Shown: in pieces, positions 13,141 through 63,158 of the stretch
Position numbering within the stretch: position 1 is the first letter of the stretch
Layout of the letters: the number at the start of each line of letters is the position of its first letter
Origin: Octopus vulgaris
Taxonomy: Eukaryota
DNA: 64,000 nt
Assembly (NCBI GenBank): GCA_951406725.2
Contig: OX597824.1
Coordinates: 15,872,001 to 15,936,000, forward strand
Direction: 5' to 3'
Program-made: the position numbers and the translations under genes
The notes under the pieces: generated by a model
What the model saw: only the letters and a program-made list of their open reading frames with translations
Told to the model about the DNA's origin: nothing
Databases searched by the model: none

Positions 13141-13836
13141 AAGGCGGCGAGCAGGCAGAAACGTTAACGCGACGGGTGAAATGCTTAGCGGTATTTCGTC
13201 TTCCGTTACGTTGTGAGTTCAAATTCCGCCGAGGTCGACTTTGCCTTTCATCCTTTCGGGGTCGATAAATTAAGTACCAGTTACGCACTGGGGTCGATGT
13301 AATCGACTTAATACCTATGTCTGTCCTTGTTTGTCCCCTCTGTGTTTAGCCCCTTGTGGGCAATAAAGAAATAGGTATTTCGTCTGCCGTTACGTTCTGA
13401 GTTCAAATTCCGCCGAGGTCGACTTTGCGTTTCATCTTATCGGGGTCGATAAAATAAGTACCGGTTACGCACTGGAGTTAATGTAATCGTCTTAATCCCT
13501 TTTTCTGTCCTTGTTTGCCCCCTCTATGTTTAACTCCTTGTGGGCAATAAAAAAATATGAAACATTAACGCGACGGGCGAAATGCTTAGCGGTATTTCGT
13601 CTGCCGTTACGTTCCTCTCTGTGTTTAGCTCCTTGTGGGTAGTAAAGAAATAGGTATTTCGTCTGTCTTTATGTTCTGAGTTCAAATTCCGCCGAGGTCG
13701 ACTTTGTCTTTCATTCTTTCGGGGTTCGATAAATTAAGTACCAGTTACGCACTGAGACGATGTAATCGACTTAATCCCGTTCTTTGTCCTTGTTTGTCCC
13801 CTCTATGTTTAGCCCCTTGTGGGCAGTAAAGAAATA
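13141..13836 (+). mobile_element. SINE family B tandem array
   Basis: A full head followed by repeated bodies restarting at GGTATTTCGTC (13190, 13374; about 184-bp period). Confidence 0.88.
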
Positions 13837-15365: not shown

Positions 15366-15508
15366 CATTCAAAGTTTTCTTTCCTCAGTCAAGTACCAGA
15401 TTATCTTCGCAATTTCGGGTGATTATACTTAAGATTGCTCCAATCTGGTCAGCCCATAGGAAAAACTAAGCTAAGAGCATTAGATTCCTTGGAAGAAAGC
15501 AGCGAATG
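15366..15508 (-). ncRNA. Permuted hammerhead ribozyme candidate, family 1 copy A
   Basis: GGCTG ACCAGATT gga GCAAT C| TTAAGT ataat CACCC GAA ATTGC gaagat AATCTGGT ACTTGA CTGAGGA. Lies in a ~315-bp element (about 15267-15582) flanked by (AT)n. Confidence 0.7.
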
Positions 15509-16641: not shown

Positions 16642-16750
<109 letters not shown>

Positions 16751-17048
16751 AGCTTAGAGAAGAAGAAGAAACGAAACGAAACCAAACGAATCGAATCGAA
16801 TCGACGCGAAGGCGCTCAGTCATACAATAGTGTAATAAATAAAATATATGCATACATACAAACATATATGTACGTACCTACATCTACATGTATATATACA
16901 TGCATATATAAATATATATACGTGTGTACAGGACACCACAAATGTACGTAGAACTCAACGAGAAACGAAAAAGTAAAAACAAGCATGGAACGGACCATTT
17001 TTTTAACAACGAAAAAACAGAGTACAAGACAGCTACACAAGGAAAACT

Positions 17049-17166
17049 CCCCTTCATCAGCTGTCCCTAGTTCAACTCCAGCGTGTTTCTAAGGTGAGGA
17101 CAGAACACGTCTCGTCGAACTAGTCCTTCTTGCGAAAGAATTAAATAAAATTCCTTTGCAGAGGGG
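17049..17166 (-). ncRNA. Permuted hammerhead ribozyme candidate, family 2
   Basis: CCCCT c [hairpin] a GAAGG a CTAGTTCGAC gaga CGTGT T| CTGTCC tca CCTTA GAA ACACG ctgga GTTGAACTAG GGACAG CTGATGA AGGGG. Confidence 0.7.
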
Positions 17167-18663
17167 TAAAAACAAGGAAAAAAAACGTGACAAAAACAGG
17201 ACGTAAAAACAATACAATTAAAAACAAATACAAAATAAAAATACAATTACAAGAAATACAGTACAAGAAGGAATATATATATATATATGTATATGTGTGT
17301 GTGTGTGTGTGTTTGTGTGTATACATACATATATGTGTGTGTGTTTATATATATCTATGCGTGCGTGTCTGTTTGTATTGGTAGTGGTGATGATGGTGAC
17401 GGTGTTGGTGGTAGTGGTGGTGAATGCGTAAATATTGCCCTTGTTAGTTTAGTGATGGCAGCGATGGTGCGAAGGAGGTGGAGGAGGATCAGCAGTAGCT
17501 AGCAGTGGAAGGAAGAGGAGAGAGAGAGAAAGAGAGACAGAGAGAGAGTGACAGAGACGAGACTGAAAGGGAAGCAGAGGGAGTTACTACACAGACAATG
17601 GTGGTGGGTTGAAGGAAGGGTTTTTGAGAAAACCGAAAGAGGTGTGGTGTGAGGAGTACAACACTGAAAGTGGTGGTGCAGTTAGGGATGGTGTTTCAAT
17701 GAGGTGTGGCGGAGGAGGTGATGTATACAGAAAAAGGGTGGGGGTAGAATCAGGTAAGGGTAGTGTGTATATAAGGACCTAGAGAGGTGTAGTATGTGGG
17801 AGGGGGCGGGACGAATGGGGTGTGGCAGGGGCGGGTGTGGTGGCAATTAATCGCAGTTAAGATTTCCTTTTTTTTCCTAAATACATTTGTCATTCATCAC
17901 AAATTGATTTATATTCATATTTCTTAAATTGTCTGTGACTGAGTGCGTGTGTATGTGTATGTGTATGTGCGTGCGTGCGTGTGTGTGTGTCTAAGAAAGA
18001 GAGAGAGAGGGAGGGAGTGTTGTGTGTATGTGTATGTATATATGTGTATATGCATGTGTGTGTCTGAGAAACAGAGATAGAGAGGGAGAGTATGTGTATA
18101 CGTATGTGTATGTGTGTATGTGTGTGTCTAAGAAAGTGATATATATATAGAGAGAGAGGGAGAGTGTGTGTGTATGTGTATGTGTGTATGTGTATGTGTA
18201 TGTGTATATGCATGTGTGAGTCTGAGAAAGAGAGAGAGAGAGGGAGTGAGTGTGAGAAAGAGAGATAGAGAAATATATATATATATAGAGAGAGAGGAAG
18301 AGTGCATGTATGTGTGTCTGAGAAAGAGAGAGAGAGGGAGAGTGTGTGTTGTGTGTATGTGTATGTATGTATGTATATGCATGTGCGTGTGTGTGTGTCT
18401 GAGAAAGAGAGAGAGAGAGAGAGAAAGGGATGCGCTTGTGTGTCTGAAAGAAAGTGAGAGAGAGAAGGACTGTGTGTGTATATATGTGTGTGTGTGTGTA
18501 TGTGAGCCTATAGGTGTACATACACAGTTCTCTCTCTTTCTCTCACACACGCGCGCACACACACACCAAAAACACACACACACAACAGAAACATGCACAC
18601 ACAACAGAAGCACATACACACACACACAGAGTCCCCTTCTCTCTATCTCTTTTTCTCTCTCTA

Positions 18664-18774: not shown

Positions 18775-19209
18775 AGAGAAATACCTATTTCTTTACTACC
18801 CACAAGGGGGCTAAACACAGAGGAGACAAACAAGGACAGACAAACGGATTAAGACAGACAAGGACAGACAAACGGATTAAGTCGATACCATGCGTAACTG
18901 GTACTTAATTTATCGACCCCGAAAGGATGAAAGGCAAAGTCGACCTCGGCGGAATTTGAACTCAGAACGTAACGGCTGACGAAATACCTATTTCTTTACT
19001 ACCCACAAGAGGCTAAACACAGAGGGGACAAACAAGGACAGACAAACGGATTAAGTCGATACCATGCGTAACTGGTACTTAATTTATCGACCCCGAAAGG
19101 ATGAAAAGCAAAGTCGACCTCGGTGGAATTTGAACACAGAACGTAACGGCAGACGAAATACGGCTACGCATTTCGCCCGGCATGCTAACGTTTCTGCCAG
19201 CTAGCCGCT
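18775..19209 (-). mobile_element. SINE family B tandem dimer
   Basis: Two reverse-complement bodies with the head near 19209. Confidence 0.85.
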
Positions 19210-32260: not shown

Positions 32261-33829
32261 GTCTTCTGCCAATCAGCAAATGTTCAGTGAATTTTAATGA
32301 CGGCAGACGATAGGTCTCCCCTTTCTGGAAGCGGAGATAATTTCAATGAATGAAGAAGAATTCATCTTCTATGTTATTTAATATTCCTTTATCCGGCTTT
32401 GTTTTTTCAACAACATCCCACTAGCCCTCTTCATTTATTTCTTTTCGTCCATTTTCGTTTCCACTATGCAAATTAACTCGGCGATGAATGCGCTTCTATC
32501 TCTCTCTATTTTCCCTCTTTCTCACCTAGGCGTTCTCACCACATATATACACGAAGATTATATTCTTTCATTCCTTTAATCTGTTACTTGTTTCAGTCAT
32601 TAGGCCCGAAATTTTGGGGGAGGTGGCCAGTCGATTAGATCGATCCCAGTACGCAACTGGTACTTAATTTATCGACCCCTAAACATAGAGGGGACAAACA
32701 AGGACAGACAAAGGGATTAAGTCGATTACATCGACCTCAGTACGTAACTGGTACTTAATTTATCGACCCCGAAAGGATGAAAGGCAAAGTCGACTCCGGC
32801 GGAATTTGAACTCAGAACGTAACGACAGACAAAACACCGCTAAGCATTTCACCCGGCGTGCTAACGTTTCTTATTTCTATATTGCCCAAAAGGGGCTAAA
32901 CATAGAGGGGACAAACAAGGACAGACAAAGGGATTAAGTTGATTATATCGATTCCAGTTCGTAACTGCTACTTAATTTATCGACCCCGAAAGGATGAAAG
33001 ACAAAGTCGACCTCGGCGGAGTTTGAACTCAGAACGTAACGACAGACAAAACACCGCTAAGCATTTCACCCGGCGTGCTAACATTTCTTATTTCTATATT
33101 ACCCACAAGGGGCTAAACATAGAGGGGACAAACAAGGACAGACAAAGGGATTAAGTTGATTATATCGATTCCAGTTCGTAACTGCTACTTAATTTATCGA
33201 CCCCGAAAGAATGAAAAGCAAAGTCGACCTCGGCGGAGTTTGAACTCAGAACGTAACGACAGACAAAACACCGCTAAGCATTTCACCCGGCGTGCTAACG
33301 TTTCTTATTTCTATATTACCCACAAGGGGCTAAACATAGAGGGGACAAACAAGGACAGACAGACGGATTAAGTTGATTACATCGACCCCAGTTCGTAACT
33401 GCTACTTAATTTATCGACCCTGAAAGGATGAAAAGCAAAGTCGACCTCGGCGGAATTTAAATTCAGAACTTAAAGACAGACGAAACACCCCAGTACAGGC
33501 GCAGTCTTCTGCCAAACAGCAAATGTTCAGTGAATTTTAATGACGGCAGACGATAGGTCTCCCCTTTCTGGAAGCGGAGATAATTTCAATGAATGAAGAA
33601 GAATTCATCTTCTATGTTATTTAATATTCCTTTATCCGACTTTATTTTTTTCAACTACATCCCACTGGCCCTCTTCATTTATTTCTTTTCGTCCATTTTC
33701 GTTTCCACTATGGAAATTAAGTCGGCGATGACTGCGCTTCCATCTTTCTCTATTTTCCCTTTTTCTCACCCAGGCGTTTTCACTACATATATACACGAAG
33801 TTTATAATCTTTTACTTGTTTCAGTCATT
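32261..33829 (+). repeat. ~330-bp direct duplication (32261-32600 / 33504-33829) flanking a SINE B array
   Basis: Both copies begin GTCTTCTGCCAA.CAGCAAATGTTCAGTG and end TTACTTGTTTCAGTCATT. Confidence 0.88.
32603..33490 (-). mobile_element. SINE family B tandem array, 217-bp period
   Basis: Near-identical units, which explain the twin ORFs at 32939 and 33156. Confidence 0.88.
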
Positions 33830-62068: not shown

Positions 62069-62882
62069 AAACTTATATATAAAGGACGTGAAATTCACGA
62101 ATTGACAAACACGGAAAAACGGACAGTAATTCAGAGCCTTCATTCTTCAGTCAGAAACCGATTCATCATGGCAAATTTCGGCTGTTTAATTCTGAGATTT
62201 GCTCCGAAAAGGCCAGCCCCAAGGCAAAAGCTAAGCTATGGGCATTAGATTTGCTTGGTAGAAGGAAAGAATGTGACAGTCGAGACGAACAGGAAAACAA
62301 GAGACGAAGATAAAATTTACAGTAACGAATAAAAACAGGAATGACACGGGGGCGTCATACGACTTTGAGACAAAATGAGACAAAACAATTGATCAGCAGC
62401 GTGGGAAGTGGTTACCTTTTCGGTAGAGAAGACGTGTTGTACGAACCGCTGCCAGCAGTGGAATGGCTTAGCAGTAGTGGATTTGCAAGAAGGTGAGAGA
62501 GAAAGAGAGAGGGGGGATTGAGGAGGGCCGAGAAATGACCAAGAGAGAGAGAGAGAAAGAAAGAATTAAAGAGGGTGAGAGGAAGGGGCGCCAAAATAGC
62601 TTGGTAAAGAGGCGCCAAAATTCCTTGAGGAAGAAGCAATGGTGGATGATGAAGGGGAAGTTTAAAGTAGAAGACATCCTGCAATAGTGGAGATATGACA
62701 AACGTAAATGGATTGGTGCACGTGCGCTGCGATAATATAGAATAAAACTTATATATAAAGGACGTGAAATTCACGAATTGACAAACACGGAAAAACGGAC
62801 AGTAATTCAGAGCCTTCATTCTTCAGTCAGACACCGATTCATCGTGGCAAATTTCGGCTGTTTAATTCTGAGATTTGCTCCG
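62065..62882 (-). mobile_element. Non-coding retrozyme/Penelope-like element: 676-bp unit with 142-bp direct terminal repeats carrying the permuted hammerhead (family 1, copies B1 and B2)
   Basis: 62065-62206 is repeated at 62741-62882 with 2 differences seen. (AT)n lies on both flanks, and there is no credible ORF. Confidence 0.75.
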
Positions 62883-63016: not shown

Positions 63017-63158
63017 CATTCGAAGCCACTAATCTTCAGTCAAGAACCGGATCATCCTCGCAATTTCGGCTGATTAATCTTGAGATCGCTCCGATCCGGC
63101 CAGCCCCAAGGAAAAACAAAGTTACGAGCATTAGATTTCTTGGAAAAAGGATCGAATG
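63017..63158 (-). ncRNA. Permuted hammerhead ribozyme candidate, family 1 copy C (best preserved)
   Basis: GGCTG GCCGGATC gga GCGAT C| TCAAGA ttaat CAGCC GAA ATTGC gaggat GATCCGGT TCTTGA CTGAAGA. All four central helices pair. Confidence 0.75.

Follow-up and report, generated by a model that had tools for sequence, protein, structure and literature searches.

Hammerhead ribozymes have been dissected into three blocks, S, G, and C, and the passages of PMC10085705 that set out this scheme assume that block C, the CUGANGA strand with its stem I and stem II strands, cannot be interrupted. With CUGANGA and stem II taken as inseparable, six hammerhead permutations were counted as possible there, and types SGC and CSG were validated from environmental sequence. 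Only small insertions into the core are mentioned in the accessible sections of PMC3088659, and an excerpt of PMC13725137 speaks of hammerhead variants that have extra helices and cites three papers for them, PMC10085705 and PMC10162972 among them. The hammerheads of Penelope-like elements (PLEs) are described as dimeric and as usually carrying one unpaired base at the A9–G10.1 step (PMC4209133, in part). Naiads are reported to be without canonical hammerheads, yet 10 "HHR_core" and 8 "HHR_half_core" labels are given in the same report, whose available text also describes (TA)n targets, partial tandems, and inversions (Craig et al. 2021, PMC8557442).

The window considered here is a 64,000-nt stretch of the Octopus vulgaris genome, which is 2.8 Gb in size and rich in microsatellites. 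Every helix named by the first-pass annotation is found at its claimed position on the minus strand between 17166 and 17049; the list of helices stands, to which an unpaired A at 17124 is to be added. Read 5′ to 3′ on the minus strand, the feature begins with f (17162..17166), the 5′ strand of a closing helix whose length is 5 bp or more in 20 of the family's 22 parsed copies, followed by hairpin h (17130..17161) and the 5′ strand of stem II (17125..17129, with G10.1 at 17129), which is detached from CUGAUGA. The unpaired A separates stem II from b (17114..17123), the 5′ strand of a helix that links stem I to stem II at their far ends. Block S (17098..17109) contains III′ (17109-17105), U17 (17104), and stem I (17103-17098), and by analogy with hammerheads the cut is predicted at 17104/17103. 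Block G (17082..17094) comprises II′ (17094-17090, with 17090 the mutated position 11.1), GAAA (17089-17086), and stem III to 17082. The 3′ strand of helix b, b′, lies at 17067..17076, and I′ (17066-17061) and the CUGAUGA core strand (17060-17054) occupy 17054..17066. The final segment, f′ (17049..17053), comes immediately after A9, where stem II usually starts. The feature at 17049-17166 is real and is a variant of the hammerhead class.

The copy in the window is damaged. Its G10.1–C11.1 pair, which is the norm for the family (designated F2), is absent. The expectation of a C before GAAA is borne out at 27 of 30 F2 loci, in 98 of 100 among the first matches listed, and in nearly all contig depth in all four public runs examined, from four organisms. 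The 10.1–11.1 pair had been thought the only one broken; there is a second defect at 17130, in the closing pair of h. Since 17130 closes h at 27 of 30 loci, h abuts G10.1 without a spacer in intact copies. With both pairs broken, the function of the window copy is probably impaired. Energy folding assigns an intact F2 copy a z-score of -3.39 (0 of 200 shuffles as low) and the window copy -2.84; in F2 it finds f, h, b, and III and misses the pseudoknotted stems I and II. The copies of family 1 in the window give no folding signal (z 1.20 and -0.96).

F2 is a dispersed repeat, with 2,025 first-look candidates, 40 of which were scored at 95–100% identity. Two exact F2 motifs have 466 and 1,073 matches in the genome and none in reversed controls. 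The window copy belongs to a non-autonomous, 5′-truncated element (16746..17275, minus strand) that is flanked on both sides by (TA)n and ends at the commoner of two TA-rich 3′ sites of the family (20 of 30 loci; the earlier site accounts for 10 of 30). At 8 of 30 loci the copy runs on upstream into the tail of the unit before it, the unit measuring about 780–830 nt where it is tandem, and inverted 5′ segments are present among the copies. All of this, from the partial tandems in head-to-tail order and the truncated 5′ ends to the inversions and the fixed 3′ ends within (TA)n, fits PLEs as described in part of PMC8557442. No ORF was found in the F2 element at the loci examined, and ARAGORN, which degenerate tRNA-derived SINE heads escape, reported no tRNA gene at any of 7 loci. 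Spaced copies on C2, C6, C9, and C23 turned out to be local duplications or unrelated, and three viral-contig matches to a 16-mer were without the remainder of the motif.

Scanning of loci brought six further families or subfamilies, so that seven (F2, F2b, F1a, F1b, F3, F4, and F5) share one layout in the O. vulgaris genome: f-h-II-b-III′-UH|I-II′-GAAA-III-b′-I′-CUGANGA-f′. F1a and F1b together make up the family 1 of the first-pass annotation, whose claim of a common architecture extends to all seven; its further claim, that outside the core the primary sequence of F2 is unlike that of family 1, is right as regards F1a and F1b, yet F2 is related in sequence to F2b and F3. In the window the minus strand carries, from G10.1 to A9, the same architecture in F1a (63033..63105) and F1b (62144..62218, with a 5′-truncated tandem partner at about 62820-62882), as well as a diverged F1a-type copy (15382..15454). 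The CUGANGA, GAAA, and NUH core strands and the G10.1–C11.1 pair are present in 7 of 7 family representatives, and h stops directly 5′ of G10.1 in all seven. The gap between A9 and the closing helix is 0 nt in F2, F2b, F3, and F4 and 2 nt in F1a and F1b; the closing helix is imperfect in F5. A strict per-copy parser, on which many older copies failed, accepted 22 of 30 copies of F2, 27 of 30 of F1a, 0 of 30 of F1b, 12 of 25 of F3, 2 of 20 of F4, 6 of 20 of F2b, and 5 of 30 of F5.

Different ribozyme families often lie less than 1.5 kb apart in shared TA-rich patches (L003, L017, L030, L080, L091, L116, L127, and L177); despite this clustering, no intact copy occurred in 400 kb of unselected genome. 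A separate repeat of 184–217 nt in short tandem arrays is also common across loci, including 13190-13557, 18824-18990, and 32679-33489 of the window. One of its copies has CUGACGA and does not match the descriptor.

The connection with Naiads was approached by inspecting the last 400–560 nt of 54 Naiad consensus sequences (supplement of PMC8557442) by eye, with no script. The split fold can be recognized in this way in 10 of the 54 ends (Bfor, Chem-3, Amil, Aacu, Anas, Movir-2, Plae, EuTe, Obim, and Ovul; in Plae f and h are partly out of view). As the three corals are nearly identical, and likewise the two octopuses, the ten ends come down to about seven independent lineages, which belong to five phyla. 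The Esco end appears degenerate, and in 37 of the 54 neither this fold nor type CSG was recognized by eye. The suggestion that the fold is an old structural class gains support from the further octopus families and from these Naiad consensus sequences.

The octopus Naiad consensus published in PMC8557442 itself ends in the split fold, and F5 matches it. A 14-nt motif from that consensus has 554 matches in the genome versus 14 in controls. Remnants of Naiad-type reverse transcriptase (RT) lie upstream of the F5 ribozyme on the same strand at 15 of 30 and 11 of 30 loci, in overlapping sets that include the query locus. One remnant matches RVT_1 with an E value of 1.3e-5 and a score of 25.5, under the curated cut-off of 29.6, and another (L241) contains the DKA motif, which is Naiad-specific according to part of PMC8557442. 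The N-terminal GIY-YIG endonuclease attributed to F5 comes from the published octopus Naiad consensus (PMC8557442 supplement). No RT ORF joined to F1–F4 was found in long flanks, at GIY-YIG loci, or at the Naiad RT loci examined. For F2, with neither an ORF nor a sequence link to Naiads seen at the loci examined, the resemblance is architectural.

Other Naiad ends differ. The six 3′ ends of nematode Naiads (Nbra-1, -2, -3, Hcon, Hpol, and Asuum) appear by eye to be of type CSG, and in one of them A9 and G10.1 are separated by an extra U; type CSG had been reported from metagenomes only, as far as the available text of PMC10085705 goes. Naiads of bivalves and hemichordates (CGi, Sglo, Olur, Tgra, Pmar, Skow, and Pfla) are without CUGANGA and have a different 3′ motif in common, which by eye resembles a nested double pseudoknot, perhaps an HDV-like ribozyme, and suggests that ribozyme classes may be swapped within Naiads. 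The ends of the spider Naiad_Smim and the ostracod Naiad-1 to -4_Dst show a CUGACGA core by eye; in Naiad_Smim the stem II strand may sit between blocks S and G, which would be a further split arrangement.

The reading that we prefer, with a probability of about 50%, is that the octopus feature is a split hammerhead of a PLE-mobilized element, that it cuts itself, likely through the joint action of two copies, and that Naiads are its autonomous carriers. The window feature would then be a damaged copy of a mobile element likely mobilized by Penelope-like retrotransposons, and intact copies, which have a complete hammerhead core, are predicted to cut themselves. The chain appears to have been opened between A9 and G10.1, the stem II strand having moved upstream together with the helix b behind it. 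Hairpin h and the closing helix f, evident in sequence and covariation, would return that strand to the core. Helix b is tied to helix III through both of its strands, and the two would make up one rod, with I and II′ at its loop end and II, I′, and CUGANGA at its open end. The loop end of one copy could dock in the open end of another, so that tandem precursor transcripts would be cut and unit-length RNA released. Naiads carry the fold in the case of F5 and presumably do so for F2. A bolder version, in which this is a seventh hammerhead topology ranging from comb jellies to octopus, the missing ribozyme of Naiads, and active solely as a head-to-tail dimer, with tandem transcripts as its only substrate, seems to us slightly less than an even bet.

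The geometry speaks for the action of two copies. By crude estimate, the gap between the rod ends would be 56–70 Å if b stacks outward, as against a linker reach of 26–58 Å. In coral Naiads stem III appears by eye to have 13 bp and b 9 bp, in the crustacean Naiad 10 bp and 5 bp, and in both the links on at least one strand are 0–1 nt. With III longer than b and links as short as these, a monomer of the coral and crustacean ends could hardly bridge the distance; if the ribozyme is active, head-to-tail assembly of two copies is therefore favored, with reasonable rather than strong confidence. The arrangement parallels the dimeric action proposed for PLE hammerheads in part of PMC4209133. The same geometric puzzle was raised for type SGC, and in the available text of PMC10085705 the word "dimer" occurs in references only.

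It is also conceivable, and in our estimate rather unlikely, that the split hammerhead is active as a single molecule, the loop between b and III kinking so that b folds back along III and II. The k-turn pattern consists of a 3-nt bulge and tandem GA/AG, and loops at 27 of 30 loci of F1a, 29 of 30 of F1b, 8 of 20 of F4, and 9 of 30 of F5 match it, those of F2 loosely; the k-turn-like loops are located where a bend would be needed. Full fold-back of b would leave a gap that is crudely estimated at 14–28 Å, a distance that the linkers can span in 5 of 6 families. Bulged-G loops are straight, however, and those of F2b and F3 are bulged-G-like. The rules for three-way junctions hold that links of 0–1 nt favor outward stacking, and the II–b and b′–I′ links are of that length in most families. 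Helix b of the coral and crustacean Naiads looks too short by eye for such a fold. Single-copy constructs of type SGC were nonetheless cleaved in transcription assays, according to part of PMC10085705.

Intact copies very probably cleave themselves. The 5′ ends of genomic copies, read for the first 87 of 1,073 motif matches in genome order, fall in four ranges relative to the cut: 7 at +37 to +18, 21 at +17 to 0, 17 at -1 to -81, and 42 beyond. The rate from 0 to +17, just 3′ of the predicted cut, is about 3.5 times that on either side and is not sharp; its rough Poisson p of about 1e-7 is for a range (+17 to 0) picked after the data had been seen. A first reading of the ends as a sharp pile-up at the cut gave way to this broad excess when a downstream control was included. 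Only 2 of the 87 copies start within 1 nt of the predicted cut, 42 of 87 extend more than 81 nt past it, and several 5′ junctions are stem-mediated inversions. Such a distribution of 5′ ends could also arise from stalling at structure, and many copies derive from uncut or rejoined RNA. At L316, L319, and L357 the 5′ inversion junctions lie on ribozyme stems (I/I′ and III/III′), as if the cDNA had snapped back on its own complementary strands.

These ends leave some room for the idea, which we hold to be improbable, that the structure is real and conserved and does not cleave, serving as a hammerhead-derived signal for protein binding or packaging. The break in the core is unprecedented, and the 5′ ends show no sharp pile-up at the cut. 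In Poseidon, another PLE, hammerhead cleavage is described as protein-assisted and dispensable for insertion in vitro, with no RNA-seq ends at the cleavage site (PMC11167929, in part). Against a non-cleaving signal stands the retention of the catalytic nucleotides, the 10.1–11.1 pair, and NUH in 7 of 7 families while the helices turn over.

The split hammerhead resembles type SGC (HRIMA-1; Eckert et al. 2023, PMC10085705, in part) in its S-G-C order, short I-to-II′ linker, helix joining stems I and II, and full core. The order is therefore already published, which the first-pass annotation had not taken into account, and the novelty is the detached stem II strand together with helices h and f. 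Type SGC keeps the stem II strand with block C, whereas the octopus fold separates them and has h and f at the A9–G10.1 step. The RNAs described in the available text of PMC10085705 come from metatranscriptomes and metagenomes, bar one doubtful GCS case; the octopus fold is from the genome of a known organism. The stem II strand of the octopus families does not lie 0–2 nt after CUGANGA as in type SGC, that position allowing at most 2 of 5 pairs in F1a, F1b, F4, and F5 and a weaker option of four pairs in F2, F2b, and F3. Nor is there the nested three-way junction of hammerhead types I, II, and III, the order being S-G-C.

The minimal type-I hammerheads of PLEs (PMC4209133) and those of animal non-LTR retrozymes (bioRxiv 10.64898/2026.07.22.740005), as far as the consulted portions of both sources describe them, likewise lie in a PLE-type repeated end, have been proposed to act as dimers, and occur in non-autonomous tandem derivatives. 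They are of type I with a vestigial stem III, whereas the octopus fold has full stems, is pseudoknotted, and is split. The unpaired base usual at A9–G10.1 in PLE hammerheads implies that this step tolerates insertion, and the octopus fold would have its helices there. The 2026 preprint ties retrozymes to PLEs, and the octopus fold is absent from its available text. No natural hammerhead with helices at A9–G10.1, and no report of this topology or of any ribozyme fold in Naiads, was found in the full-text literature searched, in which subscription journals are sparsely covered.

The four-pair option raises the question of whether the active form of F2 is an ordinary type-SGC fold that has a single additional base following A9, the upstream strand being a decoy or a switch. 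Four of five pairs to II′ can be formed in this way in F2, F2b, and F3, and an extra base at the A9 step is usual in PLE hammerheads. The resulting duplex is weaker, at -2.2 to -3.1 kcal/mol versus -4.6 to -5.4 kcal/mol, and the arrangement is impossible in F1a, F1b, F4, and F5. Between F2 and F3, moreover, II′ covaries with the upstream strand, and the bases that follow A9 keep their match to f. These observations make an ordinary SGC form quite improbable.

In support of the split hammerhead, stems I, II, and III flank the core and covary across families. When 18 copies drawn from the 7 families are aligned blind to structure, stems II and b pair at 90.3% versus 57.1% in shuffles (0 of 500 as high) and 33–47% when slid, with a covariation score of 0.906 versus 0.267, and in 10 of 12 pairs both partners change. 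On this alignment two of five measures failed to exceed shuffles (191/500 and 333/500), and stems I and III, which are out of register in it, were examined separately. With one natural copy per family, pairs form at 35 of 35 positions in II, 28/28 in III, 35/35 in I, 34/35 in b, 27/28 in h, and 28/28 in f. This pairing is matched by 1–12 of 5,040 permutations, figures that are optimistic because b, h, f, and U16.1 were each set in the register that pairs best, the F5 pick is unusual in h and f, and the families are partly related. A strict descriptor had 0 matches both in 400 kb of unselected genome (40 stretches) and in 25 shuffles of 400 kb, and so it provides no estimate of enrichment.

That chance is very unlikely, as had been asserted, is borne out by these empty shuffles, with the two F2 motif counts and their empty controls, and with the folding score of the intact copy. 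Chance complementarity within a repeat, for which the shortness of the helices and the failure of any Rfam hammerhead model to match might be cited, is refuted by covariation across families, by the absence of the descriptor from shuffles, and by recurrence across phyla, and its probability is negligible. The Rfam result is that an intact F2 copy matches no hammerhead model at E values up to 10; for the window as a whole, the best 150 of 419 Rfam matches were noise of microsatellite type.

The fold breaks the assumption, found in part of PMC10085705, that CUGANGA and stem II are inseparable, and it places non-circularly permuted hammerheads in the genomes of animals, where their copies number many hundreds at the least. 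To the puzzle that Naiads have core fragments and yet seemed devoid of hammerheads in the account of PMC8557442, as far as its available text goes, the fold offers a direct answer. Ribozyme engineering gains the A9–G10.1 step as a new site for insertions into the core. Standard descriptors and Rfam, moreover, overlook a class of ribozymes present in genomes.

Young PLE families with intact ORFs of 781 and 753 aa, encoding RT and then a zinc finger and GIY-YIG, were encountered at L191-L196 (e.g., L192:581-5270) and at C1:90013583-90013975. They have an upstream frame of 479 codons, and their 3′ end contains a hammerhead-like motif of the minimal type I in which the core is a variant one. By its zinc-finger motif, the 781-aa type looks like Neptune as described in part of PMC8557442. 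The intact 781-aa family with C-terminal GIY-YIG was considered as the partner of F1–F4 and set aside, being without similarity to them; a relative lying 420 nt upstream of one F2 copy, with a TA run between, was taken as a neighboring insertion. As speculation, these young families are candidates for mobilizing F1–F4 in trans. At L098 and L151, open frames of about 210 aa lie beside ribozyme elements on the opposite (minus) strand, and they resemble the endonuclease region of L1/Tx1-type elements.
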